From an uncultured Gammaproteobacteria bacterium (GTDB taxonomy: Bacteria; Patescibacteriota; Microgenomatia; Levybacterales; UBA12049): 45,920 nucleotides of DNA. The number at the start of each line of letters is the position of its first letter. Position 1 is the first letter of the stretch. The stretch covers positions 63,754 through 109,673 of the forward strand of contig CAYZZG010000001.1 in the NCBI GenBank assembly GCA_964482825.1, in the 5' to 3' direction. The translations under genes and the position numbers were made by a program. Positions 1,903 through 18,604 of this stretch are shown here, in pieces. The notes under the pieces were generated by a model. The model searched no databases. It was given only the letters and a program-made list of their open reading frames with translations, and was not told the origin of the DNA.

Positions 1903-1920
1903 TACATTGAAAGTTTTGCA

Positions 1921-2356: not shown

Positions 2357-2436
2357 TATAAGCATCATAAAGGAGGTTTTAAAGCCTAACTAGGCTTCAC
2401 GAGTTTATTTCGAACGACAACGTTCTCAATATGTGG

Positions 2437-2462
2437 GGTAGCCGGATAGGCTACCTTTTTTT
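2437..2462 (+). terminator. intrinsic terminator-like hairpin directly upstream of rplC
   Basis: GGTAGCC-ggata-GGCTACC (perfect 7-bp stem) followed by T7. Ends 11 nt before the rplC ATG. Confidence 0.6.
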
Positions 2463-2473
2463 GTTTTGGGACT

Positions 2474-4212: not shown

Positions 4213-4949
4213 GGAGATTAAAAAGAATTCGAAAAAAACATGGAGGGAGAGATGCAAGCGGAAAAGTTGTTGTTCGCCATCAGGGCGGGGAACAAAAGCG
4301 CTTTCTGCGAACAATTGACTTTAAGCGTAAAAAAAGAGATATTACTGGAAAAGTTATTGCTATAGAGTATGATCCTAATAGAAATGCAGACATAGCTCTG
4401 GTACAATATGCCGACGGAGATAAACAATACATTATAGCTCCCAACGGAATTACACTTGGGGCGAAGATATCTGCTGGACGTAATATAGATCTATATGCAG
4501 GAAACAGCATGCCGCTTGGAGATATTCCAATCGGAACTATGATTCATAACGTAGAGCTTACTCCTGGCAAGGGAGCTCAGATTGCGCGAAGTGCTGGAGC
4601 AGTCGTTATTATTGCGGCAAGAGAGGGAGGATTTGTTCATCTTAAGCTTCCTTCCGGGGAAATACGAAAAGTACGAAGCGATGCCTATGCTACTATTGGT
4701 CAAGTAGGAAATATTGAGTGGAAAAATGAAATATTTGGAAAAGCAGGGCGCAAGAGACTTATGGGTATTCGTCCATCTGTTCGTGGTGTGGCTATGAATC
4801 CACGCTCACATCCTCATGGTGGAGGAGAAGGACGAAGCGGTATTGGTATGAAATCGCCCAAAACATACGCAGGCCGCAAGGCGGTTGGAAAAACGAGAAA
4901 TAAAAATAAGTATTCTAATAAATATATACTAGAGCGGAGGAAGAAGTAA
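4209..4949 (+). CDS. rplB: 50S ribosomal protein L2 (short N-terminus)
   Basis: 246 aa with VRHQGG, EYDPNR and NPRSHPHGGGEGR motifs. Confidence 0.95.
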   Translation: MRRLKRIRKKHGGRDASGKVVVRHQGGEQKRFLRTIDFKRKKRDITGKVIAIEYDPNRNADIALVQYADGDKQYIIAPNGITLGAKISAGRNIDLYAGNSMPLGDIPIGTMIHNVELTPGKGAQIARSAGAVVIIAAREGGFVHLKLPSGEIRKVRSDAYATIGQVGNIEWKNEIFGKAGRKRLMGIRPSVRGVAMNPRSHPHGGGEGRSGIGMKSPKTYAGRKAVGKTRNKNKYSNKYILERRKK

Positions 4950-4951
4950 TG

Positions 4952-5035
4952 AATACTACCAATAATTACCAATTTCAAATATCCAATTTCAAATGTAACA
5001 TTGGTACTTATTTGAAATTTGAAATTTGTAGTATT
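4952..5035 (+). repeat. imperfect long hairpin built from AATTTCA/ATTTGAA heptamers (rplB-rpsS spacer)
   Basis: Arms 4977-4994 / 5010-5027 pair 16/18. Outer stem AATACTAC 4952-4959 / GTAGTATT 5028-5035. Confidence 0.7.
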
Positions 5036-5043
5036 GGAAATTA

Positions 5044-5055
5044 CGACTGAAAGGA
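5044..5055 (+). promoter_or_regulatory. CGACTGAAAGGA box (contains the SD) between hairpin and rpsS start
   Basis: Same box at 14853-14864 (CGACTGGAAGGA, rpsM) and 15835-15846 (TGACTGAAAGGA, rpsD). Confidence 0.55.
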
Positions 5056-5059
5056 ATTT

Positions 5060-5344
5060 ATGTCACGATCATCAAAAAAAGGTCCTTATATAGATAAGAA
5101 GTTACTTAAAAAAGTTTTGATCCAGAAAAACACTGGAGATCGAAATATTATTAAGACATGGTCACGAGCGTGCCAGATTTCACCGGAGTTTGTCGGACAT
5201 ACATTTGGTGTTCATAACGGAAGAAACTTTATCAATGTATTGATAACAGAGGCAATGGTAGGGTACAGATTAGGTGAATTTTCACTAACCAGAACTTTTA
5301 GGACTCACGGAAAAGTAGTGGCTAGGGAAATCAGTAAAACCTAG
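5060..5344 (+). CDS. rpsS: 30S ribosomal protein S19
   Basis: 94 aa, [11 protein letters not shown]...[10 protein letters not shown]. Confidence 0.97.
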
Positions 5345-5414
5345 CGTCTGGAGATTAGCGTTTAGCGTCTAGTTTAAGGAACTAACTGCTAGACGCTAGT
5401 AACTAAAAGCTAAT
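5342..5414 (+). repeat. hairpin built from TAGCGTCT repeats (rpsS-rplV spacer)
   Basis: Perfect 10-bp stem TAGCGTCTAG 5363-5372 / CTAGACGCTA 5389-5398. Outer ATTAGC 5354-5359 / GCTAAT 5409-5414. Confidence 0.75.
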
Positions 5415-5420
5415 AAGAAT

Positions 5421-5753
5421 ATGGAAGTTATTGCTTTAGCAAAATCAGTAAGAATAAGTCCAAGAAAAGTTCGTTTAGTTGCGGAAAGTATTCGAAATAA
5501 GCCGGCAGTGGAGGCTTTACAGACGCTTTCGCTTATTAGAAAACGAGCAGCTTCTTTTCTGGAAAAGACTCTTAAAAGTGCCATGGCTAACGCCATGCAC
5601 AATACAAAGGTAGCAGAAGAAGCATTATTTATTAAAAAAATTGAAGTAACAGAAGGCCCACCATTTAAGCGTTTTCATCCGTCAACCAGAGGAAGAATCC
5701 ATCCATATAAAAAGCGTACCAGCCATATAAAAATAATATTAAAAATAAAATAG
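5421..5753 (+). CDS. rplV: 50S ribosomal protein L22
   Basis: 110 aa, VRISPRKVRLVAESIR motif, operon order. Confidence 0.95.
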   Translation: MEVIALAKSVRISPRKVRLVAESIRNKPAVEALQTLSLIRKRAASFLEKTLKSAMANAMHNTKVAEEALFIKKIEVTEGPPFKRFHPSTRGRIHPYKKRTSHIKIILKIK

Positions 5754-5857
5754 AAAAAATAAAAGATATATATGAAATATAAAAAAGATAAATATATAAA
5801 AAAGTACCATAATTTTTCATTTTTCATTTTTAATTTTTAATTTTTAATTTAATTATT
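5754..5857 (+). repeat. A-rich tract followed by T-rich heptamer tract (TTTTTCA/TTTTTAA), potential AT-only hairpin
   Basis: Direct reading. AT-only pairing is promiscuous, so the structure is uncertain. Confidence 0.4.
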
Positions 5858-6502
5858 ATGGGACAGAAAGTAAATCCACACCTTTTGCGGCTTGGCCCTA
5901 TTTACAACTGGGAAAGTCGTTGGTTTGACAAAAAACACTATAAGGAAGTTTTGCTTGAAGATTATGCCTTGCGAAAGGCATTAATGGAAAAGTTAAGAAT
6001 ATCGGGCGTGTCAAGGATTGAGATCGAACGGTCAATCAATAGCATAAAAATTACCGTATATGTTTCAAGGCCTGGAATTGTTATTGGAAGAGCAGGAACA
6101 GGACTTGAAGAGTTAAAGAAATTTGTTGTTGCGCTTTTAACACAGGGAAAAAAGAAACATATGGCAAAAATTGATATTAGAATAGAGCAGGTAAAACAAC
6201 CAAATCTTGACGCATACTTGGTTGCAAAAATGATTGCAGATCAGTTAATAAAGCGCCTTCCTTACAAACGAATACTTGGTCAAGCGGCAGACAGAGTTAT
6301 GGAGTCTGGAGCAAAGGGAGTACGTATAGTTATTGCAGGAAGAATTGCGGGTGCGGAAATTGGTAGGCGGGAAAAAGCCCAAAGAGGAAAGGTACCACTT
6401 TCTACAATAAGAGAACACATTACTTTTGCAAGTGTACCTGCGCTTACCAAAAAAGGATATATTGGGATTAAGGTATGGATTAATAAACCAGAGGAGAAAT
6501 AA
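5858..6502 (+). CDS. rpsC: 30S ribosomal protein S3
   Basis: 214 aa, MGQKVNPHLLRLG start, KH-domain pattern. Confidence 0.97.
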   Translation: MGQKVNPHLLRLGPIYNWESRWFDKKHYKEVLLEDYALRKALMEKLRISGVSRIEIERSINSIKITVYVSRPGIVIGRAGTGLEELKKFVVALLTQGKKKHMAKIDIRIEQVKQPNLDAYLVAKMIADQLIKRLPYKRILGQAADRVMESGAKGVRIVIAGRIAGAEIGRREKAQRGKVPLSTIREHITFASVPALTKKGYIGIKVWINKPEEK

Positions 6503-6505
6503 TCT

Positions 6506-6910
6506 ATGTTAGTGCCAAAACGAACAAAATATCGAAAGCAACACAGAGGAACAATGAAGGGGAATGCCCATAGTGGAACAAATGTTTCATTTGGGGAATA
6601 TGCACTTCGCACACAAGAATCTGCTTGGATTACTGCTAGGCAAATTGAAGCAGCAAGACGTGCGATAACACATTATACACAACGTGGTGGAAGACTATGG
6701 ATACGTATCTTTCCCGATAAGCCAATTACTAAAAAACCTGCAGAAACCAGAATGGGAAGCGGCAAGGGTGATGTATACGAGTATGTTGCAAGAGTTTTAC
6801 CAGGCAGAGTTTTATTTGAAATGGGTGGTGTAAGCAAAGACGTGGCGCATACAGCGCTTCGTCTTGCCGCACATAAGCTGCCAGTAAAGACACTTATTAT
6901 TGATAAATAA
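6506..6910 (+). CDS. rplP: 50S ribosomal protein L16
   Basis: 134 aa, [15 protein letters not shown] start. Confidence 0.97.
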
Positions 6911-6913
6911 TAT

Positions 6914-7126
6914 ATGAAAACAAAAGCAAAGAAAGAATTACACACAAAAACGATCAAAGAGTTGCAAGAAACTGTAAGAGCGGCTAGAGCTGATTTGTTT
7001 AAACAAAAAATGGCATATGCACAGCGAAAACTCAAAGATGTCGCATTGCTGCATAGAAAACAAAAAGAAATAGCAATACTTCTAACAATTATTAGGGGAA
7101 AGGAGCAAATTAATGAAAACGCTTAA
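6914..7126 (+). CDS. rpmC: 50S ribosomal protein L29
   Basis: 70 aa helical protein in the L29 position between rplP and rpsQ. Confidence 0.9.
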
Positions 7127-7331
7127 TGGCATTGTTGTCGCAAAGAGCATGGACAAGACAGCAATTGTTGAGGTGATCAGGAGAACGCCTCATAAACTAT
7201 ATAAAAAACTTATTAAGCAAAGCAAGAGGTACTCTGTTGATACAAAAGGAAAAGACGTGATTGTAGGATCACAGGTAACTATAGTAGGAACACGACCAAT
7301 TTCTAAGAATAAACATTTTCGATTGCAATGA
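7113..7331 (+). CDS. rpsQ: 30S ribosomal protein S17
   Basis: 72 aa, [14 protein letters not shown]...RPISKNKHF. Confidence 0.93.
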
Positions 7332-7702
7332 TTCAACATAGAACCATTTTAAAGGTAGCAGACAATTCAGGCGCAAGGTCATTAAATGTAATTCATATTT
7401 TTGGCGGTTCCAAAAGAAAGTTTGGATACATAGGAGACGTGCTTAATTGTGTTGTTAGAGAGGCATCTCCTATTGGACAGGTAAAGGAAGGAGAGATTGT
7501 GAAAGTAGTGGTCGTGAGGACAAGAAAAGAATATAGAAGAAAAGATGGGTCATATATTCGCTTTTCTGAAAATGCAGGGGTATTAATTGATAATCCTAAA
7601 GATAAAAACCCGAGAGGGACACGTATTTTTGGCCCAATTGCCCGAGAGGTAAAGGATAAAGGCTTTGCAAAAATTGCAAGTATGGCTATAGAAGTTGTTT
7701 AG
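7328..7702 (+). CDS. rplN: 50S ribosomal protein L14
   Basis: 124 aa, [16 protein letters not shown] start, ATGA overlap with rpsQ. Confidence 0.97.
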
Positions 7703-7726
7703 TTAATAGTTGGGAAGGAAATAGTT

Positions 7727-8032
7727 ATGAAAATAAAAAAAGGAGATGAGGTGAAAATAGTTCGGGGGAAAGATAAGGATAAGATGGGGAAGATTGAAAA
7801 AATTTTTCCAGAAAGTCACAGGGTGCTAGTGACAAATATCAATCAATACAAGCGTCATTTGAAAGCAAGATCACAAAATCAACCATCAGAAATAGTAACG
7901 ATTACGAAGCCATTATCTTTGGCTAATGTAGCGCTTGTTTGTCCAAAATGCCATGTGGTTACAAGGGTAGGTTATTCTATGCAAAACAATAAGAAATTAC
8001 GAATGTGTAAGAAATGCAGGCAATTAATATGA
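7727..8032 (+). CDS. rplX: 50S ribosomal protein L24 (C-terminal CxxC...CxxC)
   Basis: KOW-like KKGDEVKIVRGKDKDKMGKI. Four Cys in the C-terminal part. Confidence 0.93.
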   Translation: MKIKKGDEVKIVRGKDKDKMGKIEKIFPESHRVLVTNINQYKRHLKARSQNQPSEIVTITKPLSLANVALVCPKCHVVTRVGYSMQNNKKLRMCKKCRQLI

Positions 8033-8586
8033 TTATTACACAAGATATATACAAAAAAGAGATAGCGCCAAAATTACAGCAAAAGCTTGGTATTAAAAAT
8101 CCATTAGCTGTGCCAAAAATTGAAAAAATTGTTGTAAATATGGGAGTAAAAGATGCACTTTCTGATAAAAAGAATATGGAGAAAGGCCTGCAGATACTTA
8201 CAGAGCTTACAGGACAAAAACCAAAGATAACTCAAGCAAAAAAATCCATTGCGTCGTTTAAGCTCCGAGAAGGAGATCAAATCGGTCTTATGGTAACCCT
8301 AAGAGGTAAAAGAATGTATAATTTTTACTCAAAACTTATCAGCGTTGTGTTTCCTCGTTTTAGGGATTTTCATGGGGTTTCAAGAAATCAGTTTGACTTA
8401 AAAGGTAACTATACATTAGGTATAAATGAATATACTGTTTTTCCCGAGATAGATCCGGGAAATATTGATAGAATACAGGGGCTTGCGGTGACGATTGTTA
8501 CAACCGCAAAGAACAAAGAAGAAGGATTGGCATTGCTTGAGACTATAGGTATGCCATTTCAAAAGTTAATAGTTAACAGAAAATAG
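8029..8586 (+). CDS. rplE: 50S ribosomal protein L5
   Basis: ATGA overlap with the rplX stop. L5-like sequence. ATG 8014 in the ORF track is an alternative. Confidence 0.92.
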
Positions 8587-8591
8587 TTATT

Positions 8592-8777
8592 ATGGCAAAA
8601 ACATCAGACGTTGTAAAATTTAAGAAAAGACAAAAATACGCAGTTCGAATGAAAAACCGTTGTAATCTTTGTGGGAAAGCGCGAGGATACATGCGCCGTT
8701 TTGGACTCTGTCGTATGTGCTTTAGAGAGCTTGCATCGAAGGGGGAGCTACCGGGAGTAACAAAAGCGAGCTGGTAA
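8592..8777 (+). CDS. rpsN: 30S ribosomal protein S14, type Z (zinc-binding)
   Basis: 61 aa, CNLCG...CRMCFRELA four-Cys pattern. Confidence 0.93.
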
Positions 8778-8805
8778 TCCTTCGACGTTGCTTGGGATAA
8801 AATAT

Positions 8806-9198
8806 ATGAATTACAATATCGCGGACTTTATTATAAGAATTAAAAATGCAGCGCTTGCGCATAGAAAGCAAGTAATACTGCCATATTCTAAAGTAACAAA
8901 GGCAGTAGGAGAAATCTTAGTTAAAGAACGTTTTTTAAGTGAGTGTAAAGAAGAAATGATTGACGGAAAAAAAGTATTGCGAGCGCAAATTCGCTATGAA
9001 AAAAGGATGCCCGTTTTTACAAATATTGCTGTCGTATCAAAACCATCACTCAGAATTTATACAAGATTAAAAGCGCTTCCTAAGAAATCACGACAGGGAA
9101 GAGGAATATCTATTGTTTCAACAAGCCAGGGAGTTATGACCGCATTTGACGCGGCTAGAAAAGGAGTAGGAGGAGAGGTATTGCTCACATTGTGGTAA
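8806..9198 (+). CDS. rpsH: 30S ribosomal protein S8
   Basis: MNYNIADFIIRIKNA start at ATG 8806. The track start 8788 is TTG. Confidence 0.92.
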   Translation: MNYNIADFIIRIKNAALAHRKQVILPYSKVTKAVGEILVKERFLSECKEEMIDGKKVLRAQIRYEKRMPVFTNIAVVSKPSLRIYTRLKALPKKSRQGRGISIVSTSQGVMTAFDAARKGVGGEVLLTLW

Positions 9199-9213
9199 TA
9201 CATAATAAAAACT

Positions 9214-9762
9214 ATGTCTAAGATTGGGCGAAAACCAATTACAATAAAGACTGGCGTATCAGTTACGGTAGATGGTCAAAAAGTTACAGTACAGGGCCAA
9301 AAAGGAACATACTTATATATGGTGCCGTCTGGTATTGCCGTTGTCGTTGAGGATGGGAAAGTACAGGTTTTACAGAAAGAAGATGTTGAGGGGGGCAGGG
9401 CGCTTTTTGGATTAACTCGTGCAACTATTGCAAATATGATAAAAGGTGTTTCAGAAGGGTTTGAGCGAAAACTTGAGCTATCTGGTGTTGGTTATAGAGC
9501 GCAAGTAGTGGGAAAAGACCTTTCTTTATCCGTGGGGTTTTCTCATCCAGTAATTGTAAAAGCCCCAGAGGGAATTACTTTTGCGGTTGGTGAAAATATT
9601 ATTACCGTTACTGGCAGCGATAATGTTTTGGTAGGAGATGTAGCATCAAAAATACGTGCCATACGTCCACCAGAGCCATATAAAGGAAAAGGTATTAAAT
9701 ATGTCGGAGAAAGAATTCGAAGAAAAGCTGGAAAAGCAGCAAAGGCAGTAGGGACTAAATAA
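9214..9762 (+). CDS. rplF: 50S ribosomal protein L6
   Basis: 182 aa, SKIGRKPI...PEPYKGKGIKY. Confidence 0.95.
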   Translation: MSKIGRKPITIKTGVSVTVDGQKVTVQGQKGTYLYMVPSGIAVVVEDGKVQVLQKEDVEGGRALFGLTRATIANMIKGVSEGFERKLELSGVGYRAQVVGKDLSLSVGFSHPVIVKAPEGITFAVGENIITVTGSDNVLVGDVASKIRAIRPPEPYKGKGIKYVGERIRRKAGKAAKAVGTK

Positions 9763-9793
9763 GTTAAAAATTAAAAATTAAAAGTTAAAAGTT
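9763..9793 (+). repeat. A-rich heptamer tract (AAAAATT/AAAAGTT) filling the rplF-rplR spacer
   Basis: gttaaaaattaaaaattaaaagttaaaagtt directly before the rplR ATG. No complementary arm seen. Confidence 0.7.
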
Positions 9794-10141
9794 ATGAGAA
9801 GATATACATCAAAACAAAAAAGAGAGAGACGGGTTAGATCAAAGATCGTGGGTACAAAGGAGAGGCCACGCCTTTCGGTGTTTAGATCTAATGTTCATAT
9901 CTATGCTCAATTGATTGATGATGAGCAAAGAAAAACAATAATGGGTGTTTCAGAAAAACAACTAGAAAAAGAAGAAAAACTAAAGAAAATAGAAAAAGCA
10001 CGAAAATTAGGAAAATTATTGGCAAAAATGGCAGTTGAAAAACATATCATACGGGTGGTATTTGATAGGGGAAGCTATGCCTATCATGGTAGAACAAAAG
10101 CGCTTGCAGAAGGGGCGCGAGAAGGAGGGCTTCAATTCTAA
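9794..10141 (+). CDS. rplR: 50S ribosomal protein L18
   Basis: 115 aa, [16 protein letters not shown]...[11 protein letters not shown]. Confidence 0.93.
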
Positions 10142-10635
10142 TGAGTAATAATGCATCTATGCAGCAGCGAGGGTTGAGCGAATTTGAAGAGAAAATCGTT
10201 CAGGTAAATAGAGTGTCAAAAAAAACCAAAGGTGGTAATAAGATTGGTTTCTCTGTCCTTGTTGTAGTGGGGGATAAAAAAGGGAAGGTTGGCGTAGGCC
10301 TTGGGAAGGCGCCTGACGTTTCCTCAGCGATTCGAAAAGGTGTTTCAACGGCAAAAAAACACATGATTACAGTACCTATTGTAAGAGGTACTATCCCGCT
10401 TGAAATACGAATAAAACTTGGAGCAGCGAGAGTTATGTTAAAGCCAGCACCAATAGGAAGCGGTGTTATTGCTGGTGGTGCGGTACGAAGTGTGGTTGAA
10501 GCAGCAGGCATTCATAATATATCTTCAAAGGTCCTTGGTACAGATAACCAAGCGTCAAATGTATATGCAGCAATGGAAGCGCTAAAACAATTAAAAGAGC
10601 GTTATAATAAGATAGAAAGCTATAGAAAAAAATAA
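10141..10635 (+). CDS. rpsE: 30S ribosomal protein S5
   Basis: 164 aa, VNRVSKKTKGGNKIGFSVLVVVGD. Confidence 0.95.
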   Translation: MSNNASMQQRGLSEFEEKIVQVNRVSKKTKGGNKIGFSVLVVVGDKKGKVGVGLGKAPDVSSAIRKGVSTAKKHMITVPIVRGTIPLEIRIKLGAARVMLKPAPIGSGVIAGGAVRSVVEAAGIHNISSKVLGTDNQASNVYAAMEALKQLKERYNKIESYRKK

Positions 10636-10636
10636 T

Positions 10637-11077
10637 ATGGAGTTACATAGGTTGCGCAAGGTTACTACGGGAAAGAAAAGACGTCTTGGACAAGGACATG
10701 GATCTGGACGTGGAAAAACTGCAGGAAGAGGTACAAAAGGCCAAAAAGCACGTGGAGATATTCCTTTGTCTTTCGAAGGAGGCGCACTCCGGCTTATTAA
10801 GCGCTTGCCATTTCGTAGAGGAAAAGGAAAAAATAAAGTGTTTAAAGCTCGGCCTATTGCAATCAATATTGTAGTGTTAAATATATTGCCTGAAGGTAGT
10901 GTTGTTGATGCAGAGATGCTTATTGCCAAAAAAATTGTAGATTCAGAAGATGCAAAGAAATACGGTATAAAGATTTTGGGAGATGGAAATCTTGCCATAC
11001 CACTTCAGGTAAAACTTCCAGTATCTAAAGGCGCTGCAAAAAAAATAACAAAAGCGGGCGGAACAGTAATACAATAG
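10637..11077 (+). CDS. rplO: 50S ribosomal protein L15
   Basis: 146 aa, GQGHGSGRGKTAGRGTKGQKAR. Follows rpsE directly, with no L30 gene. Confidence 0.93.
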   Translation: MELHRLRKVTTGKKRRLGQGHGSGRGKTAGRGTKGQKARGDIPLSFEGGALRLIKRLPFRRGKGKNKVFKARPIAINIVVLNILPEGSVVDAEMLIAKKIVDSEDAKKYGIKILGDGNLAIPLQVKLPVSKGAAKKITKAGGTVIQ

Positions 11078-11090
11078 TAAAGAGTAATAA

Positions 11091-12377
11091 ATGGAAAATT
11101 ATCTAAGCGTTTTTCGAAACGCTTTTAAAACAACGGAAGTAAGACAAAAGCTCCTGTTTACCGCTGGTATTTTTTTTATCTTTCGTCTTTTTGCTCACAT
11201 TCCCGTATCGGGGGTTAATTTGGCAAGTCTTAAGTCACTTTTTGCACAAAATCAATTTTTAGGACTGTTAGATATTTTCTCAGGCGGCACTTTGGCTAAT
11301 TTCTCTGTAATGGCACTTGGATTAAATCCTTATATTAATGCCTCAATCATACTGCAGCTTTTGACAATGGTTTTTCCAAAACTTGAGGCGTTATCAAAAG
11401 AAGGAGAAGCAGGAAGACAAAAAATTAACCAATATACACGTTTCCTTACCGTGCCACTCTCTGTGCTTCAGGCAGTAGGAATGTATGCTCTCTTGAGAAG
11501 TCAAGGAATTATATCCCTGCTCTCACCTGTCTATCTTGTATCATTTATTGTAACAATGACTGCCGGTACAATGCTGTTGGTTTGGCTTGGAGAGCTGATC
11601 TCAGAAAAAGGTATAGGAAACGGTATATCGCTTCTTATTTTTGCCGGAATTGTAGGTCGTATACCTATACTTGTCGGTCAGGCATTCTCCACAGCTACCC
11701 CGGAAAATACTTTTAATACCCTTATGCTTTTAGGACTAGGTATTATTGTTATCAGCGCAATTGTTACCATGAATGAAGCAACTCGCCGCATAAGTATCTA
11801 TTACGCAAAACGCGTACGGGGCAATAAAATGTACGGTGGGCAATCGACGCATCTGCCTCTTCGGCTTAATCAGGCGGGAGTAATTCCTATTATCTTTGCA
11901 GTGTCGCTTGTGCTTTTGCCTTCTCTTATTGCCAATTATTTTAGCAGTGCTAATAATTCGGTTTTGCAAAATGCCGCAAATATTCTTTCCTCCTTGTTTA
12001 ACCCTGGGGGTTTCTTCTATAATGTTTTCTACTTCATGCTGGTCGTAGCTTTTACCTACTTCTATACTGCGGTTATTTTTAATCCAAAAAAGATTGCCGA
12101 GGAAATACAAAAATATGGGGGTTTTATTCCTGGGATTAGGCCAGGAATACCAACGGCACAATTTCTTAATTATATTTTAACTCGTATTACACTTGCTGGC
12201 GCTCTTTTCCTTGGACTTATTGCCATTTTGCCTACTGTTGCTTCTGCAATAACTAATGTGCAGACACTCCTTATAGGAGGAACGGGAGTTTTAATCGTGG
12301 TATCAGTAGTATTAGAAACAATTAGGGCTATAGAAGCACAATTGGTAACAAGAAGCTACGATAAATTTACAAAGTAG
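11091..12377 (+). CDS. secY: preprotein translocase subunit SecY
   Basis: 428-aa polytopic membrane protein in the canonical spc-operon position. Confidence 0.97.
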
Positions 12378-12380
12378 GCT

Positions 12381-12929
12381 ATGAAAATAATTTTAATTGG
12401 CATTCCGGGATCTGGAAAATCAACACAAGGGAATATGCTTTCTAAAAAGCTAAATGTTCCGTATCTTTCTACAGGGCACATTTTTAGAGAGTTGGCAAAA
12501 GAGCATACAAAATTGGGACACCAGATTAAGCTGGTTATGAACGCCGGACTACTCATCTCGGATAAAAAAACATTGAAAATAGTGAGTGATTATTTATCAC
12601 GGCCGGAATATCAAAAAGGATATATTCTTGACGGTTTTCCTCGAACCTTATTTCAGGCAAAGGAATTTAAAAATGGAATAGATAAAGTAGTTTATCTGAA
12701 GGTTTCAGATAAAGAGATACTTTGGAGACTTGCCTATAGAAATTCTCAGGGAAGAGAGGACGACACGCTTTTGGCTATCAGAAGGCGGATAGAAATTTTC
12801 CATAAGTTCACAAAGCCTGTGCTTGAATACTATCGGAAAAGAGAAATGCTTCTGGAAATCGACGGAGAAAAGCCTATCGAAGACATCCATAAAGATATAA
12901 TGACTCACCTAACACATGGCAAAAGATAA
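12381..12929 (+). CDS. adk: adenylate kinase (short-lid form)
   Basis: GIPGSGKSTQ P-loop, ILDGFPRT motif, 182 aa. Confidence 0.92.
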   Translation: MKIILIGIPGSGKSTQGNMLSKKLNVPYLSTGHIFRELAKEHTKLGHQIKLVMNAGLLISDKKTLKIVSDYLSRPEYQKGYILDGFPRTLFQAKEFKNGIDKVVYLKVSDKEILWRLAYRNSQGREDDTLLAIRRRIEIFHKFTKPVLEYYRKREMLLEIDGEKPIEDIHKDIMTHLTHGKR

Positions 12930-13476
12930 ACTACTTTTAGCAATTGTTGGTATGCCGGGATCTGGTAAAAGTGAAGCAGTAGCCTACTTGCAAAATAAAG
13001 GAATTCCTGCTGTTAGATTTGGTCAACTTACCGACGAAGAACTTAAAAAAGCTGAATTACCGCTAACCGAGGAAAACGAGAAGATAGTGCGCGAAAACTT
13101 ACGAAAAGACTATGGCATGGCAGTATATGCAATCAGAGCAGAACCGAAAATAAAAGAACTTTTAGGAAAAAATAAAACTATTGTAATAGATGGTCTTTAT
13201 TCGTGGGAAGAATATGTTTATTTTAGAGAGAAATTCCCACAGCTTATTGTAATTTACATCTATACACAACCAGAAATTCGATATCAGAGACTTGCTAAAC
13301 GCTTGATTAGGCCGCTGACAGAAGATCAATCTCAACAAAGAGATATTGCCGAGATAGAGCAATTACATAAAGGAGGTCCAATTGCCATTGCGGATCATCT
13401 TATTGTTAACGATGAAGATGTTGAATCATTACATAAGAAAATAGACGCACTTCTTAGTAACCTCAATATTATTTAG
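12916..13476 (+). CDS. second P-loop nucleotide/nucleoside kinase-like protein (UPF0200/CoaE-like)
   Basis: GMPGSGKSE Walker A, 186 aa. Overlaps the adk end by 14 nt. Family assignment is from memory only. Confidence 0.5.
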   Translation: MAKDKLLLAIVGMPGSGKSEAVAYLQNKGIPAVRFGQLTDEELKKAELPLTEENEKIVRENLRKDYGMAVYAIRAEPKIKELLGKNKTIVIDGLYSWEEYVYFREKFPQLIVIYIYTQPEIRYQRLAKRLIRPLTEDQSQQRDIAEIEQLHKGGPIAIADHLIVNDEDVESLHKKIDALLSNLNII

Positions 13477-14258
13477 TGATGATAAATATTAAAACCCCGC
13501 AGGAAATAGTAATAATGGAAAAGGGCGGGAGAATATTGTCACAAGTTCTCCACCAGGTTTTAGATGTGATTAAACCAGGGATTACCGAACTAGAACTTGA
13601 TGCCTTGGCAGAAAAGCTCATTACAGAAAAGGGGGGACAACCAGGGTTTAAGAAAGTAGCAGGGTATAACCATACCATCTGTGTTTCAACCAATGATGTG
13701 GTGGTGCATGGCGTCCCAAGTTCGTATAAGCTCAAAGAAGGTGATGTTATCGGTATTGACTGTGGCGTGTATTACAAAGGGTTTCATACAGATATGTCTG
13801 AGACTCGAAGAGTCTCAACAGTTAACTATCAACAGTTAACAATTAACAATAAAAGTGACGTCGATAAGTTCCTTAAGACTGGAAAAATGGCGCTTGATGA
13901 AGCGATAAAACAGGCTAAAGTTGGTAACAGGGTTGGACATATTTCAAAGACGATTCAGGAGATTGTTGAGGGAAAGGGATATTCGGTTGTTCGAAGTCTC
14001 GTTGGACATGGAGTTGGAAAAAAACTACATGAAGAACCAGAAGTCCCAGGATTTTTGTCGGGACACATTGAACAAACACCGTTACTCAAAGAGGGTATGA
14101 CTATAGCAATAGAGGTTATTTATAATATGGGCAAACATGATGTGGTGTATGCTAATGATGATGGATGGACAATTAAGACAAAAGATGGTAGCCTCTCTGG
14201 AGTTTTTGAGCGAACAGTGGCTATTACAAAAAACGGCCCATTACATTTTACACCTTAA
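13476..14258 (+). CDS. map: type I methionine aminopeptidase
   Basis: 260 aa, VVHGVP...DCGV...GHGVG...IEV metal-ligand pattern. Confidence 0.95.
   Translation: MMINIKTPQEIVIMEKGGRILSQVLHQVLDVIKPGITELELDALAEKLITEKGGQPGFKKVAGYNHTICVSTNDVVVHGVPSSYKLKEGDVIGIDCGVYYKGFHTDMSETRRVSTVNYQQLTINNKSDVDKFLKTGKMALDEAIKQAKVGNRVGHISKTIQEIVEGKGYSVVRSLVGHGVGKKLHEEPEVPGFLSGHIEQTPLLKEGMTIAIEVIYNMGKHDVVYANDDGWTIKTKDGSLSGVFERTVAITKNGPLHFTP
13816..13855 (+). repeat. in-frame CAGTTAAC/CAATTAAC repeat module inside map (encodes STVNYQQLTINNKS)
   Basis: caacagttaactatcaacagttaacaattaacaat. Related copies at 26215-26251 and 37288-37326. Confidence 0.8.
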
Positions 14259-14263
14259 GCGTA

Positions 14264-14292
14264 TTGCGATTTAAAGGCTGGTTTGGTATAAT
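14264..14292 (+). promoter_or_regulatory. sigma70 promoter for infA
   Basis: TTGCGA 14264-14269, 17-nt spacer, TATAAT 14287-14292. Confidence 0.6.
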
Positions 14293-14299
14293 GGATTTG

Positions 14300-14410
14300 G
14301 ACGATAGATGATAGAAGGTTGAAGATAGATTATTGAGGATAGAAAGTAGAGTAGGTTCTTCTAGCTTCTATATTCTACTTTCAAAATACTACTTTCTATT
14401 TTCTATCGTC
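14300..14410 (+). repeat. ~110-nt 5'-UTR hairpin built from GATAGAA-type repeats
   Basis: Closing stem GACGATAGA 14300-14308 / TCTATCGTC 14402-14410 (9/9). Inner arms gatagaaagtagagtag / ctatattctactttc. Followed by TATTTTTTACT and the infA ATG. Confidence 0.7.
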
Positions 14411-14421
14411 TATTTTTTACT

Positions 14422-14640
14422 ATGGTGCATCAAGGCTCATTCGAGGTAGAAGGTATTGTTAAGGAATCCCTGCCTAATACATTATTTCGGGTAGAGCTTG
14501 CTGATGGCTCTATAGTTTTGTGCCATCTTTCAGGAAAAATGAGGATGCATTTTATTAAGATTTTACCTGGAGATAAAGTAAGAGTAGAAATGACACCGTA
14601 CGATAAGAGTAAAGGGAGAATTGTTTACAGAAATAAATAA
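14422..14640 (+). CDS. infA: translation initiation factor IF-1
   Basis: 72 aa, [17 protein letters not shown]...[17 protein letters not shown]. Confidence 0.95.
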
Positions 14641-14645
14641 AAGGT

Positions 14646-14759
14646 ATGAAAGTGCAAGCAAGTATCAAGGCACGATGTGCAAAATGCAAAATAATTAAGC
14701 GAAAAGGGGTTCTTCGCATTGTATGTGATAACCCTAGACATAAACAAAGACAAGGATAG
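14646..14759 (+). CDS. rpmJ: 50S ribosomal protein L36
   Basis: 37-aa ORF absent from the track: [37 protein letters not shown] (CxxC...C...H). Confidence 0.9.
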
Positions 14760-14850
14760 AGAAAATTCAAAATTCAAAATGCAAAACTCAAAATTACAAT
14801 TTAAAAAGCAAAATTTCACTTTTAACTTTTCACTTTTAATTTTCAACTTG
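14760..14850 (+). repeat. A-rich then T-rich heptamer tracts (AAAATTC / CTTTTAA) in the rpmJ-rpsM spacer
   Basis: Direct reading. Arms are only about 60 percent complementary. Confidence 0.5.
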
Positions 14851-14870
14851 AGCGACTGGAAGGAGCAAAC

Positions 14871-15362
14871 GTGAGAATAGCAGGTATTAATATACCCGAT
14901 GAAAAAAGAGTAGATATAGCGCTAACATATTTGTATGGCGTTGGTAGAAGTAATGTGGTGACAATATTAAAAAAGGCAGATGTTGAGGCAGCAAAAAGAG
15001 TAAAAACGTTGTCTGAGGATGAACAAAAACGAATTCAAAAAATACTTGAAAACTTTAAAATAGAAGGAGATTTGCGCGCTGAAGTTTTGGGTAATATTAA
15101 GCGATTAAAAGAGCTTGGAACCTACCGCGGAACAAGACATAACAGAAACCTTCCTGTCCGTGGACAAAGGACCAGGTCTAATGCTCGTACAAAACGTGGT
15201 AAGAGAGTAACAATTGGTGCTATCAAAAAAGAAGTGGCGGCAAAAATGGGTATTGATACCCGTTCGGCAGGCTCAGGGCAGGCCCGTTCGGCGGGTTCGA
15301 CAAGCTCACCGCAAGCAGGCTCAGGGCAGGCAAAAGCGACTGTAGCCCCAGAAAAGAAATAA
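14871..15362 (+). CDS. rpsM: 30S ribosomal protein S13 with ~40-aa C-terminal extension
   Basis: GTG start, RIAGINIPDEKRV..., GGAAGGAG upstream. Confidence 0.95.
   Translation: MRIAGINIPDEKRVDIALTYLYGVGRSNVVTILKKADVEAAKRVKTLSEDEQKRIQKILENFKIEGDLRAEVLGNIKRLKELGTYRGTRHNRNLPVRGQRTRSNARTKRGKRVTIGAIKKEVAAKMGIDTRSAGSGQARSAGSTSSPQAGSGQAKATVAPEKK
15259..15331 (+). repeat. GC-rich repeat core inside the rpsM 3' extension
   Basis: CCCGTTCGGC twice (15259-15268, 15283-15292). Exact 16-nt CAGGCTCAGGGCAGGC twice (15268-15283, 15316-15331). Confidence 0.85.
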
Positions 15363-15367
15363 ATTTC

Positions 15368-15763
15368 ATGAAAGATAAAAAAGAAATAGCAACAAAGAAA
15401 AAACCTATGGTTTCGGTGTCTGTGCATGGAAAAGTGTACATTACTTCGACTTTCAACAATACTTTGGTAACTATGACAAACGACAAAGGAGATACGATTG
15501 CCTGGAGTTCTTCGGGAGCGAGAGGATTTAAAGGTACAAGAAAATCAACCCCTTACGCAGCAACGCTTGCTGTTGAGGATGTAACAAAAAAAGGCCTAGA
15601 AAGAGGAATAAAATCTGTTGATATTTATGTAAAAGGGCCAGGATCGGGTCGTGATGCCGCGCTTAGGGCAATAAAAGCAGCCGGAATTTCAATCGCAATG
15701 ATAGCAGATATAACGCCCATTCCGCATAATGGGCCACGGGCAAAAAAGAAACGGAGAGTATAA
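15368..15763 (+). CDS. rpsK: 30S ribosomal protein S11
   Basis: 131 aa, ITSTFNNTLVTMTNDKGDTIAWSSSG. Confidence 0.96.
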   Translation: MKDKKEIATKKKPMVSVSVHGKVYITSTFNNTLVTMTNDKGDTIAWSSSGARGFKGTRKSTPYAATLAVEDVTKKGLERGIKSVDIYVKGPGSGRDAALRAIKAAGISIAMIADITPIPHNGPRAKKKRRV

Positions 15764-15770
15764 AATAGTT

Positions 15771-15826
15771 AAAAATTCAAAGTGCAAAGTGCAAAGTTAA
15801 TTTTGAATTTTTCATTTTGAATTTTA
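15771..15826 (+). repeat. 26-bp-stem hairpin from CAAAGTG/TTTTGAA repeats (rpsK-rpsD spacer)
   Basis: Left arm 15771-15796, loop TTAA, right arm 15801-15826. 23/26 positions pair, 3 of them G-U, which would be C-A mismatches on the antisense strand. Confidence 0.75.
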
Positions 15827-15852
15827 AATTTGAGTGACTGAAAGGAACGATT

Positions 15853-16455
15853 ATGGCAAGGTATACAGGACCAAAACATAAAATAGCACGAAGAGAAGGG
15901 GTAAATGTTTTGGATAAAACAACGGCTTCGTTGCAGCGTCGGCTTAATATTCCTCCTGGTATTCATGGTAAAAAGAGAAAAAGAGCTCTCTCGGAATTTG
16001 GACAGCAGCTTCGAGAAAAACAAAAGGCAAAAGCTACATATGGACTTTTGGAAAAGCAATTCAGAGGTTTAGTTAGGACAGTGCAAGGTAAAAAAGGAGA
16101 AACAGGAGAAATGCTTATTTCTCTTTTAGAAACACGTCTTGATAACATTGTTTATAGACTTGGATTCGCAAAAACTCGCTATCAAGCGCGTCAGTTTGTA
16201 TCTCATGGTCATGTACTCGTGAATGGAAAAAAAGTATCAATTCCGTCTTATCAAGTAAAAGAAGAAGATGTTATTTCGCTATCGGACAGAATGCTAAAAA
16301 ATCCTGCCGTTTTGGAGATGCTTAAAGAAGATGTAGTTACGCTTTCGTTTATTAAGCGGTCAGACGCTAAGGGAGTGCTTATGAGGATGCCAAAACGGGA
16401 AGATGTGCAAGTTCCATTCGATACGCAATTGATTATTGAATACTATTCGAGATAA
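15853..16455 (+). CDS. rpsD: 30S ribosomal protein S4
   Basis: 200 aa, MARYTGPKHKIARREG start. Confidence 0.96.
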   Translation: MARYTGPKHKIARREGVNVLDKTTASLQRRLNIPPGIHGKKRKRALSEFGQQLREKQKAKATYGLLEKQFRGLVRTVQGKKGETGEMLISLLETRLDNIVYRLGFAKTRYQARQFVSHGHVLVNGKKVSIPSYQVKEEDVISLSDRMLKNPAVLEMLKEDVVTLSFIKRSDAKGVLMRMPKREDVQVPFDTQLIIEYYSR

Positions 16456-16462
16456 TGCTATA

Positions 16463-17410
16463 ATGGCAAAGCAATCGTTTATGCAAGAGCTTGGTTTTAA
16501 AGTAAAAGAGGTAAAAACCGAACCAGAATATGGCGAATTTGTTATAGAGCCGCTTGAACCTGGGTATGGACATACTGTGGGAAATGCTTTGCGAAGAGTT
16601 CTCCTTACCTCTATTCCAGGAGCTGCGGCAACATCCATAAAGATTGCTGGTGTAAAACACAGATTCTCTACACTTCCAGGACTTAAAGAAAATATTGTGG
16701 ACTTAATTCTTAATATTAAAGGAATTAGCTTCAATCTTCTGGAAGATAAAACAAATGCTACCGTTAGATTGTCTGTAAAAGGTCCTAAGGAAGTGACTGC
16801 AGGAGATTTAGAACTCTCTGACGGCGTTGAGGTTGCAAACAAAAAACACTATATTGGTTCGCTGTCAGATAAAAAAGCAAAGCTTGAAATAGAATTTACC
16901 GTAGAAAGAGGATATGGATACGCACTTGCAGAAGAAGAAAAAGCAGGATCGCTTGGAATTATTCCGGTAGATGCTGTTTTCACTCCGGTTCGGCGAGTAA
17001 ATTACACCGTTGAGGCAACCCGTGTAGGACGCCAAACTAATTTAGATAAGCTCGTTTTTTCTATTTGGACTAATGGAACAATATCCCCAAAAGATGCACT
17101 AACCGAAGCGGCAAAAATTCTTGCATCTTACTTCCTGCAGATTTATGAGCCAAAGTCTTCCTCTCTGCAATCAGAGGTAGGAGTTGCAATTAGTCCTTCA
17201 GTCTCTGAGGATTTGCTTAAACTTACTATTGATGAACTTGATCTTCCGACACGTATCTATAATAGTCTTCGCAATGGAAATATAGAGACATTGGGACAAC
17301 TTCTTGGTACCTCTAAAAAAGACCTTATGGGAATGCGAAATATGGGCGGAAAATCAATTGCGATTATAGAAGATAAGTTAAGGGGAAAAGGAATATCGCT
17401 TACTGTGTAA
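16463..17410 (+). CDS. rpoA: DNA-directed RNA polymerase subunit alpha
   Basis: [25 protein letters not shown]-like motif. ATG 16463 lies after the rpsD stop, while the track start 16436 (TTG) overlaps rpsD. Confidence 0.94.
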   Translation: [315 protein letters not shown]

Positions 17411-17419
17411 GGAAATTCT

Positions 17420-17527
17420 AAATTCGAATTTCGAAATCCGAAACAAAGCCAAAATTCGAATGTTCAAATGATGAGAATTTATGTCATTTGAATTTGTTTC
17501 GAGTTTCGTGCTTCGGGTTTCGAATTT
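17420..17527 (+). repeat. ~108-nt hairpin built from ATTCGAA/TTTCGAA repeats (rpoA-rplQ spacer)
   Basis: AAATTCGAA 17420-17428 / TTCGAATTT 17519-17527 (9/9). TTCAAATGA 17463-17471 / TCATTTGAA 17484-17492 (9/9). Intermediate arms pair partly. Confidence 0.75.
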
Positions 17528-17535
17528 TTTGTACT

Positions 17536-18084
17536 ATGAAGAAAAATGTTTTTGGTAGACGATTTAAACGAGACACAAATGAAAGAAAAGCGCTTTTTAA
17601 GGGGCTTATGTCATCATTGGTACTTAAGGAGCGGATTAAGACCACAGAAGAAAAAGCAAAATCTATTAGAGGACAGGTTGAGAAACTTGTTACCAAGGTA
17701 ATGAAAAAAAATAGTGAATCATTAAGTTCTTCTCTGGGAAAATATCTTACTCCCCCTGCCATGCAAAAAATGATTGCCGAGATTGGACCTCGTTTTAAAG
17801 ATCGTAATGGTGGATACACCAGAATTATTCATATGGGTAATCGTTTTTCTGATAATGCTTCTATGGTAATTATGGAATGGGTGGAAGGAGAGGAAATTAA
17901 AAATGAAAAATTAAAAATGAAAAATTTAGAAATACAAGTTGAGAAAAAAAGCGAAGAAGATACAGTAAAAATGCAAAACGTTCAGAAAGCAAGAAAAGGA
18001 GTCAAGATAATCTCAAAAAAATTAACAGAAAAAATAAAAGAAACCGCGTCAAACGCGGCTGAGGCAAAGGAGAAAAAAAAGTAA
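17536..18084 (+). CDS. rplQ: 50S ribosomal protein L17 with Lys/Glu-rich C-terminal extension
   Basis: MKKNVFGRRFKRDTNERKALFKGL from ATG 17536. The track start 17488 lies inside the hairpin. Confidence 0.9.
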   Translation: MKKNVFGRRFKRDTNERKALFKGLMSSLVLKERIKTTEEKAKSIRGQVEKLVTKVMKKNSESLSSSLGKYLTPPAMQKMIAEIGPRFKDRNGGYTRIIHMGNRFSDNASMVIMEWVEGEEIKNEKLKMKNLEIQVEKKSEEDTVKMQNVQKARKGVKIISKKLTEKIKETASNAAEAKEKKK

Positions 18085-18085
18085 T

Positions 18086-18544
18086 ATGACAAAAGCAACA
18101 AAGCAGTCGGATATCAAAAGAGCATGGCACCTGATTAATCTTAAGGGAAAAATATTAGGCAGAAGTTCTACAGAAATAGCAAACTTACTTATGGGGAAGG
18201 CAAAGCCATATTTTATGAGAAACCTTGATTGTGGAGATTATGTTGTGATTATTAATGCAAAGCACGTTTCTGTTTCCGGAAAAAAAGAAGAAAAGAAACA
18301 ATACTTTCGATATTCTGGATATCCGGGTGGTCTTAGATCAGAAACATTAGGGCAACTACGTGAGCGAAAACCCGAAGAAGTTGTGAAACATGCTGTAAAA
18401 GGCATGTTGCCGCAAAATAAATTACGCGCTACAATGCTAAAGCGATTGTTGATTTTTGCGGAAGAACAATATCCTTATGAAGAAAAACTCAAAAGTCAAA
18501 GTTCAACCCTTCGACTTCACCCAGGGCGAGAAGTCAAAAGTTGA
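18086..18544 (+). CDS. rplM: 50S ribosomal protein L13
   Basis: 152 aa, WHLINLKGKILGR...YSGYPGG. Confidence 0.95.
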   Translation: MTKATKQSDIKRAWHLINLKGKILGRSSTEIANLLMGKAKPYFMRNLDCGDYVVIINAKHVSVSGKKEEKKQYFRYSGYPGGLRSETLGQLRERKPEEVVKHAVKGMLPQNKLRATMLKRLLIFAEEQYPYEEKLKSQSSTLRLHPGREVKS

Positions 18545-18600
18545 GGACTTTTTACTTTTGCATTGCAATTTTGCATTTTGCGTTTTGAATTTTAAATTTA
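18485..18600 (+). repeat. composite module: A-rich arm, GC core (18507-18532), A-rich arm, then complementary T-rich arm
   Basis: Overlaps the last ~15 codons of rplM. Contains the 20-nt ACTTTTTACTTTTGCATTGC (18547-18566), also present inverted at 44875-44894. Confidence 0.75.
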
Positions 18601-18604
18601 TTAT

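Follow-up and report, generated by a model that had tools for sequence, protein, structure and literature searches.

Heptamer-repeat hairpins between the ribosomal protein genes of a Levybacteria-like bacterium: probable passengers at most junctions and candidate RNA signals at two

We have analyzed the intergenic spacers of a ribosomal-protein superoperon found in a stretch of DNA of 45,920 nucleotides (contig CAYZZG010000001.1 of assembly GCA_964482825.1, positions 63,754 to 109,673), referred to below as the window. Its SecY protein has its best match, 79% identical, in Candidatus Levyibacteriota metagenome-assembled genomes, and the window is that of a Levybacteria-like bacterium of the candidate phyla radiation (CPR). 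The superoperon is located on the + strand, from position 715 to about 19100, and includes tuf and S10 through L17, L13 and S9. Several of its spacers are occupied by hairpins made of short tandem words (Table 1) that resemble the short tandemly repeated repetitive (STRR) sequences of cyanobacteria. The reading that we favor, and consider probable, is that these STRR-like elements are mostly spreading but tolerated passengers, that two of them are conserved RNA signals, and that their architecture is common with that of cassettes carrying a PF05635 gene.

Every spacer was scored as DNA for its palindromes (Watson-Crick pairs +2, both transition mismatches -1, other mismatches -3) against 200 shuffles, and RNA folding was evaluated with RNAfold as z-scores against 200 dinucleotide shuffles. 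Tandem arrays were called with Tandem Repeats Finder (TRF), with block-shuffled sequence as the control. A preliminary description of this DNA had placed repeat-word hairpins in eight spacers. Six of these are palindromes with scores that none of the 200 shuffles reached, but those at 5754-5857 (L22-S3) and 18485-18600 (L13-S9) are weak and their scores were also reached by shuffles. TRF detected 7-nt tandem arrays in both arms at nearly every one of the eight sites; the array in the L22-S3 spacer (5810-5850) has a period of 7 and 5.9 copies. The A-rich array in front of L18, described before as a single arm at 9763-9793, is indeed solitary (period 7, 4.4 copies), and neither RNAfold nor the palindrome score gave it a partner arm or a hairpin. 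The comparison of spacer folding with shuffles came out in favor of structure for the sense RNA of five of the eight sites, but at L22-S3, L36-S13 and 18480-18604 the sense RNA folded no better than the shuffles, and at L36-S13 it folded worse. The 3' arms end close to the next start codon, as had been noticed, at 8-22 nt in the window, and the median is 10.5 nt over the 106 hairpins of the comparison presented below.

Table 1. Repeat elements and associated features of the window. The palindrome column gives the score, the shuffle mean and the number of 200 shuffles that reached the score; RNA z refers to the sense strand unless indicated; passenger marks the class that we interpret as tolerated passengers; (a), read from the sequence; SD, Shine-Dalgarno motif.
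Feature	Positions	Strand	Arms	Words or motifs	Palindrome	RNA z	Remarks
L2-S19 hairpin	4963-5043	+	4963-4994 / 5010-5043	AATTTCA / ATTTGAA; outer AATACTACCAAT / TTTGTAGTATTGG	36; 17.6; 0/200	-2.3	passenger
3' tail	5045-5055	+		GACTGAAAGGA			contains TGA stop and SD for S19 (a)
S19-L22 hairpin	5342-5412	+	5342-5374 / 5380-5412	TAGCGTCT / AGACGCTA family	28; 12.6; 0/200	-3.6	passenger
L22-S3 spacer	5754-5845 (5754-5857 in the preliminary description)	+		A-rich run, then (TTTTTCA / TTTTTAA)n	35; 26.9; 12/200	+0.4	weak palindrome
Single A-rich heptamer array	9762-9795	+		AAAAATT / AAAAGTT			immediately 5' of L18 start codon
Promoter-like site	14264-14292	+		TTGCGA, 17 nt, TATAAT, with TG (extended -10)			just 5' of infA hairpin
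infA-leader (map-infA) hairpin	14304-14418	+	14304-14350 / 14367-14413	GATAGAA / TTCTATC; basal stem GACGATAGA / TCTATCGTC	45; 16.8; 0/200	-3.5	T6 at 14413-14418; ATG 14422 without SD
L36 gene	14646-14759	+					(a)
L36-S13 hairpin	14763-14849	+	14763-14802 / 14811-14849	AAAATTC / AAAATGC and TTTTCAC / TTTTAAC	36; 16.1; 0/200	+2.1 (antisense -0.9)	passenger
S11-S4 hairpin	15767-15830	+	15767-15795 / 15802-15830	CAAAGTG and TTTTGAA	34; 15.6; 0/200	-2.1	passenger
Tail	15827-15846	+		AATTTGAGTGACTGAAAGGA			3' of S11-S4 hairpin
rpoA-L17 hairpin	17413-17530	+	17413-17453 / 17487-17527	GAAATTC / GTTTCGA; basal stem CGAAATCCG / CGGGTTTCG	44; 15.9; 0/200	-4.2	T6 at 17525-17530; L17 ATG 17536 without SD (a)
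L13-S9 element	18484-18593	+	A-rich arm 18484-18506; GC-rich core about 18507-18535; T-rich arm	TTTTGCA / TTTTGAA (T-rich arm)	25; 16.3; 5/200 (spacer 18476-18604)	-0.8 (antisense -4.2)	weak palindrome
Gene-less hairpin	29264-29344	+		8-nt words GCAAAGTA / CTTTGTAC	28; 0/200 reach		between ABC ATPase and first ABC-2 permease gene
Full cassette	32522-32995	+	32522-32567 / 32940-32995	AAAGGTAC words (5' arm); CTTTGTAC words (3' arm)			PF05635 gene at 32568-32939

The word was thought to differ from site to site. This is true of several sites, but a family of A4N3 heptamers is common to five of them (5810-5850, 9762-9795, 14762-14849, 15767-15831 and 18549-18600), and arms of different window sites are 78-91% complementary to each other. 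Neither are the hairpins restricted to gaps of the operon: the same architecture is found at 29264-29344 and 32522-32995, partly at 44806-44911, and in frame within genes. A 31-nt stretch of the L13-S9 element is 87% complementary to 44876-44906. Besides, the stop codon of S19 lies inside the first word of the S19-L22 hairpin, and the 5' arm of the L13-S9 element is translated, falling in a C-terminal extension of L13 that goes 14-16 residues beyond the L13 of the relatives. An open reading frame (ORF) of 33 codons (4949-5050) was observed at the L2-S19 hairpin; its ATG at 4949 overlaps the stop codon of L2 (TAATG), and it crosses the entire hairpin and terminates at the TGA within GACTGAAAGGA, 9 nt upstream of the S19 start. 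Its ATG may be left over from an earlier start, or the frame may let translation be coupled across the element.

We have compared the window with 80 loci (labelled L001-L080), each one including SecY and 10 kb at both sides, taken from one genome per species and with the gene boundaries set by tblastn. The window and these loci add up to 1.35 Mb. Among their non-overlapping TRF arrays 130 had a period of 7; periods of 6 and 8 accounted for 7 and 11 arrays, and the block-shuffled sequence gave 0 arrays of period 7. The 170 TRF rows of period 7 (19 of them in the window) use 87 distinct words; 120 are not deep in long ORFs and 50 are deep inside them. The period, not the word, is the constant. 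In-frame heptamer arrays are located in the window at 3178-3224, 13815-13850, 17894-17934, 26213-26249, 37289-37323, 42912-42944 and 43421-43453, where they encode 7-residue peptide repeats; the genes involved include L4 (N-terminal region), MAP (a loop), L17 (tail), RecX and two others. The MAP insert occupies a variable loop in which many relatives hold similar heptamer-encoded peptides. Two candidate explanations were discarded. Provision of stop codons in all three frames would not be the reason for the period, since many words are stop-free (e.g., AAAAGTC and AAAATTC), and an assembly artefact does not fit with the same architecture being found in dozens of independent assemblies and in frame within conserved genes.

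Short GC-rich palindromic cores nested in A-rich heptamer arrays, such as CCCGCCCGCCAGCGAG...CGGGCGGG and CTTCGCCTCGCC...GGCGGG, were seen at several places: in the window at 18507-18535, about 33010-33050 and 44828-44880, in the S8-L6 spacer of L005, in the rpoA-L17 spacer of L030, and in the map gene of L001, where the core is in frame within the MAP coding sequence. They look like a second small element landing in the heptamer arrays.

For the census of hairpins at gene junctions we considered spacers of 40-200 nt and a palindrome score of at least 24 (approximately the 99th percentile of the shuffles); palindromes at or above this threshold were found in 106 of 336 junction spacers. Spacer length is distributed patchily: in many genomes all junctions measure 0-15 nt, and elements of 65-130 nt appear at many junctions of the window and of L030, L012, L005, L035, L038, L006 and L004. 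Only map-infA and rpoA-L17 have a spacer in nearly all genomes. The elements that we consider passengers are absent from most orthologous junctions; for example, the L2-S19 junction measures 0-12 nt in most relatives. The extreme case is L030, with about 19 such spacers, about 15 of them of a single family (TAGCGTCTAGGGTATAGCGGCTAGCGTCTAG, loop, CTAGACCCTAGAAGCTAGAAGCTAAACGCTCA). Spacers of different junctions share 12-mers in 9.2% of the pairs from the same genome (5.5% without L030) versus 0.93% of the pairs from different genomes.

Individual elements also recur at junctions that are not orthologous. The window L2-S19 element aligns, over both arms, with the S11-S4 element of L003, in which the family is found as well at L36-S13, and the 3' arm and tail of the window S11-S4 element match the S8-L6 element of L005 over 65 nt with about 88% identity. 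The TAGCGTCT family occupies S19-L22 in the window, L001, L005 and L030, and in the latter also about 15 other junctions. The SecY proteins of the genomes that share elements are only about 76% identical (about 25% different). Such identity of spacers at non-orthologous sites, over this degree of SecY divergence, argues for a spread by copying rather than by descent. No consistent target-site duplication was seen; some elements are bounded by ATG...ATG, as in the CCCGTTAGAAG family of L012 and L005, and the window L2-S19 element begins at TAATG. Exact-protein look-ups of S19, IF1 and L36, intended for a comparison between strains, gave no record, and the closest pair of Levybacteria among the loci is only about 82% identical in DNA. 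The tail GACTGAAAGGA follows T-rich arms also at 14854-14864 and 15836-15846 and in L003, L006, L021 and L070. As a general signature of the elements it had to be rejected, with 26 matches overall vs 26.7 in shuffles, and it is meaningful solely as the subset found behind T-rich arms. We have also noted a separate family similar to MITEs (miniature inverted-repeat transposable elements), of about 85-115 nt, with a terminal inverted repeat ATCCCGTTAGAAG...CTTCTAACGGGAT and an internal AAAGGAGGA, at L16-L29, L14-L24, secY-adk and L36-S13 of L012, L14-L24 of L005 and rpoA-L17 of L038. It spans exactly from the upstream stop codon to the downstream ATG, and often itself starts with ATG.

The suggestion of the preliminary description that these hairpins come from local repeat expansion or from a small mobile module fits most sites, given the missing orthologues, the 12-mers shared within genomes and the recurrence at non-orthologous junctions. 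However, a purely local origin, in which a lineage prone to 7-nt repeats built each hairpin on the spot through slippage and palindrome-templated strand switching, with neither movement between sites nor function, seems unlikely to us. It would account for a fixed period that coexists with 87 words, and for arrays that are single (9762-9795) or located within genes. Heptanucleotide units are, besides, described in a statement of PMC4679880 that cites Mrazek 2007 as the commonest long simple-sequence repeats of prokaryotes, with polymerase slippage proposed as their cause. But growth in place does not predict near-identical whole elements, including their non-repetitive parts, at non-orthologous junctions of genomes as divergent as these, nor about 15 copies of one family in L030, nor a 12-mer sharing within genomes ten times the level found between genomes, nor the selection at the RNA level that two of the junctions display.

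These two junctions are the infA leader and rpoA-L17, precisely those in which the spacer is nearly universal. Of the 28 map-infA spacers of Levy-like relatives, a T-run is present in 14 and an SD-like motif in 4, and a TGnTATAAT motif appears in most relatives at the place equivalent to that of the promoter-like site of the window. At rpoA-L17 the long hairpin is present in 18 of 24 Levy-like relatives, the T-run in 18, both of them in 15 and an SD-like motif in one, with 3-9 nt between the T-run and the ATG. The window rpoA-L17 element is orthologous to those of L009 and L012. The word varies by lineage (ATTCGAA, ATCTCAA, CAGTTTT, GATAGAA, ACACGAA) while hairpin and U-run persist. G:U-type changes, together with one compensatory pair, preserve the basal stem within word groups; covariation could be followed by alignment within word groups only, as the arms are unalignable across them. 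In more distant Microgenomates this junction is occupied by a classic terminator of short length, CTGCGTCATCATGACGCATTTTT, and an SD comes after it. Conservation of the structure while the word changes, which had been raised as a question for the orthologous spacers, is therefore a property of rpoA-L17 and the infA leader but not of the other junctions. In the whole census, a T-run (at least 5 T directly after the 3' arm) accompanies 22 of the 106 hairpins, 14 of them at rpoA-L17 and 7 at map-infA, and an A-run precedes the 5' arm in 4 of 106.

The mismatches in the stems give a simple way to tell the two classes apart, as a stem selected as sense RNA tolerates G:T but not A:C. The stems of rpoA-L17 and map-infA (30 hairpins) had 77 G:T vs 37 A:C (p = 2e-4), and those of all the other junctions (76 hairpins) 83 vs 116; Fisher's test between the two classes of junctions gave p = 1.3e-5. 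When the 106 hairpins were pooled no bias was found (160 vs 153), and the signal appears only after the split by junction. The stem of the L36-S13 hairpin has 0 G:T and 4 A:C mismatches. An excess of G:T at two junctions and none elsewhere indicates that the infA-leader and rpoA-L17 hairpins are under selection as sense RNA and the others are not. The proposal that the hairpins are RNA-level elements thus survives for these two sites, but not for the rest.

In its general form, that selection maintains every hairpin for a role in the polycistronic mRNA (as a site of processing by RNase III or RNase Y, a 5'-end stabilizer or an insulator of translational coupling), we judge the proposal improbable. 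All the sites are sense-oriented in one long operon, their 3' arms stop 8-22 nt before the next start codon, five window sites fold as sense RNA above shuffles, some elements have an SD tail, and the stems of rRNA intervening sequences are known RNase III substrates (PMC4990558). Nevertheless, the same junctions measure 0-15 nt in most close relatives, the stems outside the two conserved junctions show no tolerance of G:U, the sense RNA of three window sites shows no more folding than shuffles, and the same elements are found at unrelated junctions and in frame within genes. We consider very unlikely that the arrays bind a single-strand nucleic-acid-binding protein with a footprint of 6-7 nt (cold-shock-domain, S1 or IF1), the melting of the hairpin tuning termination or translation of the next cistron: this would agree with a conserved period over unconserved sequence, with T-rich heptamer 3' arms just ahead of start codons, with the binding of heptamer repeats by Bacillus subtilis CspB, one protein per heptamer (PMC4679880), and with the presence of one of the conserved hairpins in the infA leader, the product of infA being an OB-fold protein, but there is no direct evidence for it, T-richness does not extend to words like TAGCGTC and GATAGAA, the passengers are dispensable in relatives, and the arrays flanking PF05635 genes have periods of 7-12.

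Outside the operon, the same architecture is found around a gene. The product of 32568-32939 belongs to the Pfam family 23S_rRNA_IVP (PF05635; E = 1.2e-37), and its flanks are inverted arrays of the 8-nt word GTACAAAG. Pairing across the gene gives a score of 39 vs a shuffle maximum of 24, with flanks that are not self-complementary (16 and 12), and the 5' arm of the cassette shows 87% complementarity with the 3' arm of the gene-less hairpin at 29264-29344. We used the window protein to scan metagenomes and obtained 27 loci, 20 of them with usable flanks, so that 21 genes could be examined including that of the window. Significant inverted flanks within 90 nt were found in 13 of the 21, and in 11 of these 13 the flanks pair only across the gene. 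They are usually tandem arrays of 7-12-nt words, specific of each locus, over a range of GC contents from 0.33 to 0.65. In L081, L082, L084 and L086 the PF05635 gene lies directly upstream of a homologue of the first ABC-2 permease of the window. L081 contains also the ATPase homologue (65.6% identity) and, by our reading of the sequence, both arms, the 3' one made of the word CTTTGTAC as in the window; in L084 the arms are built from another word. With the gene present in these relatives and the hairpin alone in the window, the ABC ATPase-permease junction exists in a filled and an empty state, by either loss or insertion of the gene. The operon hairpins carry no ORF of the PF05635 family, and in none of the 80 loci was such an ORF seen within the ribosomal operon. 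Abutting the 3' arm of the cassette, on the - strand (32995-33448), we observed a divergent class A bacterial RNase P RNA; the match has 36.5 bits vs a Rfam gathering score of 100 (E = 9e-10) and covers fully the model (1-367) in 454 nt, so the RNA probably carries insertions.

The favored reading, passengers at most junctions and RNA signals at two, can be put together as follows. Each element consists of two tandem arrays of words of 7 nt, or sometimes 8 nt, in inverted orientation, which would arise and change by replication slippage. Complete palindromes would also spread as small non-autonomous elements, and several families are common to Levybacteria genomes at differing gene junctions. 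Being inside an operon, the elements would be co-transcribed with it. At the infA leader and rpoA-L17 the hairpin would be kept by selection on the RNA, with U6 and, 3-9 nt further, an ATG without SD; its role may be that of an intrinsic terminator or attenuator, or else that of a structured leader on which ribosomes are loaded in the absence of an SD. At the other junctions palindromes would survive only where they are harmless, exactly between stop and start codon and in the orientation that puts an SD-bearing tail or a U/A-rich stretch ahead of the next gene. The gene-less hairpins are plausibly the solo form of an element similar to the rRNA intervening sequences (IVSs), because they share their architecture with the cassettes that have PF05635 in the loop, and, by analogy with rRNA IVSs, they may be cut by RNase III. 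We can take this further, although tentatively and with considerable doubt: inverted word arrays and PF05635 (Avd-like four-helix-bundle) genes might form a single widespread and unrecognized class of hairpin cassettes, with a stem of 7-10-nt words and the gene in the loop, that colonizes rRNA helices and intercistronic spacers. The gene-less hairpins of CPR, and possibly the cyanobacterial STRRs, would then be solo derivatives, some of them recruited as attenuators.

Several points weigh against this interpretation. The period of 7 is left unexplained by it. We detected neither a transposase nor a target-site duplication nor any intermediate of transposition, so mobility is deduced from the distribution of the elements, and, the arrays being of low complexity, some of the similarity between sites could be convergent. 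With the window PF05635 protein, tblastn (E <= 1e-4) detected in the 80 SecY loci and the window only the window's own copy, and hence the connection between operon hairpins and cassettes comes from shared architecture and one junction outside the operon. The passenger stems have an unexplained excess of A:C over G:T (116 vs 83, p = 0.02), opposite to what selection as sense RNA would produce; a mutational strand bias or selection against stable structure in the sense RNA are possible causes. Regarding the conserved sites, T6 (14413-14418 and 17525-17530) comes no more than 2 nt after a basal stem of 9 bp, an arrangement conserved at both junctions, but a consensus terminator scan called neither of them because their loops exceed 8 nt, and what points to termination there is geometry and conservation. 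Also, an efficient terminator 8 nt before an essential gene, with no promoter in between, is awkward, and read-through or a role other than termination has to be assumed.

The preliminary description held that ordinary terminators or repetitive extragenic palindromic (REP) elements do not explain the hairpins, and in its spirit this does not hold: the two conserved sites have the geometry of terminators, and the rest behave like dispersed palindromes of the REP, MITE or STRR type. Like Rho-independent terminators, 14304-14418 and 17413-17530 have a GC-containing basal stem followed by T6. Unlike them, the stems have 40-46 pairs and are AU-rich and built of heptamers, the loops measure 16-33 nt, and the U-tract is 3-9 nt from the SD-less start of an essential gene.

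Among known systems the closest is the heptamer hairpin of cyanobacterial STRRs. These 7-bp repeats can fold into hairpins between cistrons, for example hupS and hupL, where the function is unknown and a role in stabilizing the transcript or in coupling translation has been suggested (PMC2670836), and (TTTTGAA)n arrays are found near start codons upstream of Nostoc 7120 genes (bioRxiv 10.1101/2022.06.06.494920). In both cases there are tandem 7-nt words, several per genome, mostly intergenic and near starts, with inverted arrays able to form hairpins between co-transcribed genes. The host here is, however, a Levybacteria-like CPR bacterium and the site a ribosomal-protein superoperon, a difference of taxonomic scope rather than mechanism given that the named family is cyanobacterial. 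Paired inverted arrays are here the rule, whole elements recur at non-orthologous junctions, some with an SD tail, and one class has a U-tract and RNA-level selection. The association with PF05635 is not described for STRRs in the limited literature that we searched. The TAACTGA repeats of Beggiatoaceae, Cyanobacteria and Bacteroidetes are similar as well, tandem heptamers located a few nucleotides upstream of starts, sporadic in their phylogenetic distribution and with occasional in-frame copies in ORFs, and Csp, S1 and CsrA have been proposed as their readers (PMC4679880). They consist of one word nearly always in direct arrays (169 direct sets and 1 indirect), in contrast with the many words in inverted pairs found here.

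With REP/REPIN, Correia/NEMIS, ERIC and Rickettsia elements and with MITEs, these hairpins have in common being short, intergenic, multicopy, patchy and co-transcribed with the flanking genes. Correia/NEMIS copies are cut by RNase III and the Rickettsia palindromic elements are inserted in frame in genes. As in MITE or REP-like families, we found related copies within a genome, presence and absence at orthologous sites, and recurrence of an element at sites that are not orthologous; the general class of dispersed palindromes and MITEs has been reviewed (PMC2229807, PMC10969869, PMC3116915). They differ in that the arms here are tandem 7-nt words where those families have one unique terminal inverted repeat, sequence change proceeds through replacement of the word, and no associated RAYT or insertion sequence transposase and no target-site duplication was identified in the window. 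Finally, rRNA IVSs have inverted-repeat borders and a sporadic distribution, RNase III cuts them out, and they can contain an S23p/PF05635 ORF (PMC4990558); PF05635 ORFs are found also in CPR rRNA insertions (PMC11270868), and the family resembles the Avd protein of diversity-generating retroelements (PMC10053308). The likeness of the 23S rRNA IVSs to 32522-32995 lies in a terminal inverted-repeat stem with a PF05635 ORF in the loop, in the sporadic distribution, and in a transcribed region that tolerates an extra stem-loop. However, here the elements are between or inside protein-coding genes instead of rRNA helices 9, 25 or 45, the arms are tandem word arrays, and most window copies are gene-less. 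A limited literature search, which is no proof of novelty, gave no report of repeats of this kind in CPR or Patescibacteria, nor of word-repeat arms around PF05635 genes.

Other features of the locus can be mentioned briefly. The S10-L3 spacer (2230-2473, 244 nt) has a promoter-like site at 2328-2356 and a clean terminator-like hairpin with a T-run at 2435-2457, just before L3. This spacer is also long in relatives (95-1094 nt) and could be a leader, an attenuator or a small transcript. An additional AAA-domain gene (12916-13476) is located between adk and map. The S5-L15 interval (10141-11077) lacks an L30 gene, whose absence is expected in CPR bacteria. We found no tRNA or rRNA in the window, and no match at the Rfam gathering score over its whole length, so that no curated family fits any spacer; at E <= 0.1 the region 1900-19000 gave only one miRNA match, at chance level.

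Heptamer hairpins were known mainly from cyanobacteria and a few other lineages, and what is new here is their STRR-like counterpart in CPR, which makes this kind of repeat much more widely distributed. In genomes as small and streamlined as those of CPR bacteria, one would not expect palindromes of 65-130 nt to occupy many junctions of the operon that is most conserved. They also lengthen proteins, as in the tail of L13 and the inserts in MAP and L17, and they will confuse the prediction of operons, terminators and small ORFs in CPR metagenome-assembled genomes. A simple mismatch test separates hairpins selected as RNA from passenger palindromes, which advises caution with regulatory readings of intergenic stem-loops. 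If the link with PF05635 is true, it would provide a genomic context and a testable origin both for the rRNA intervening sequences with S23p ORFs and for the STRR repeats.

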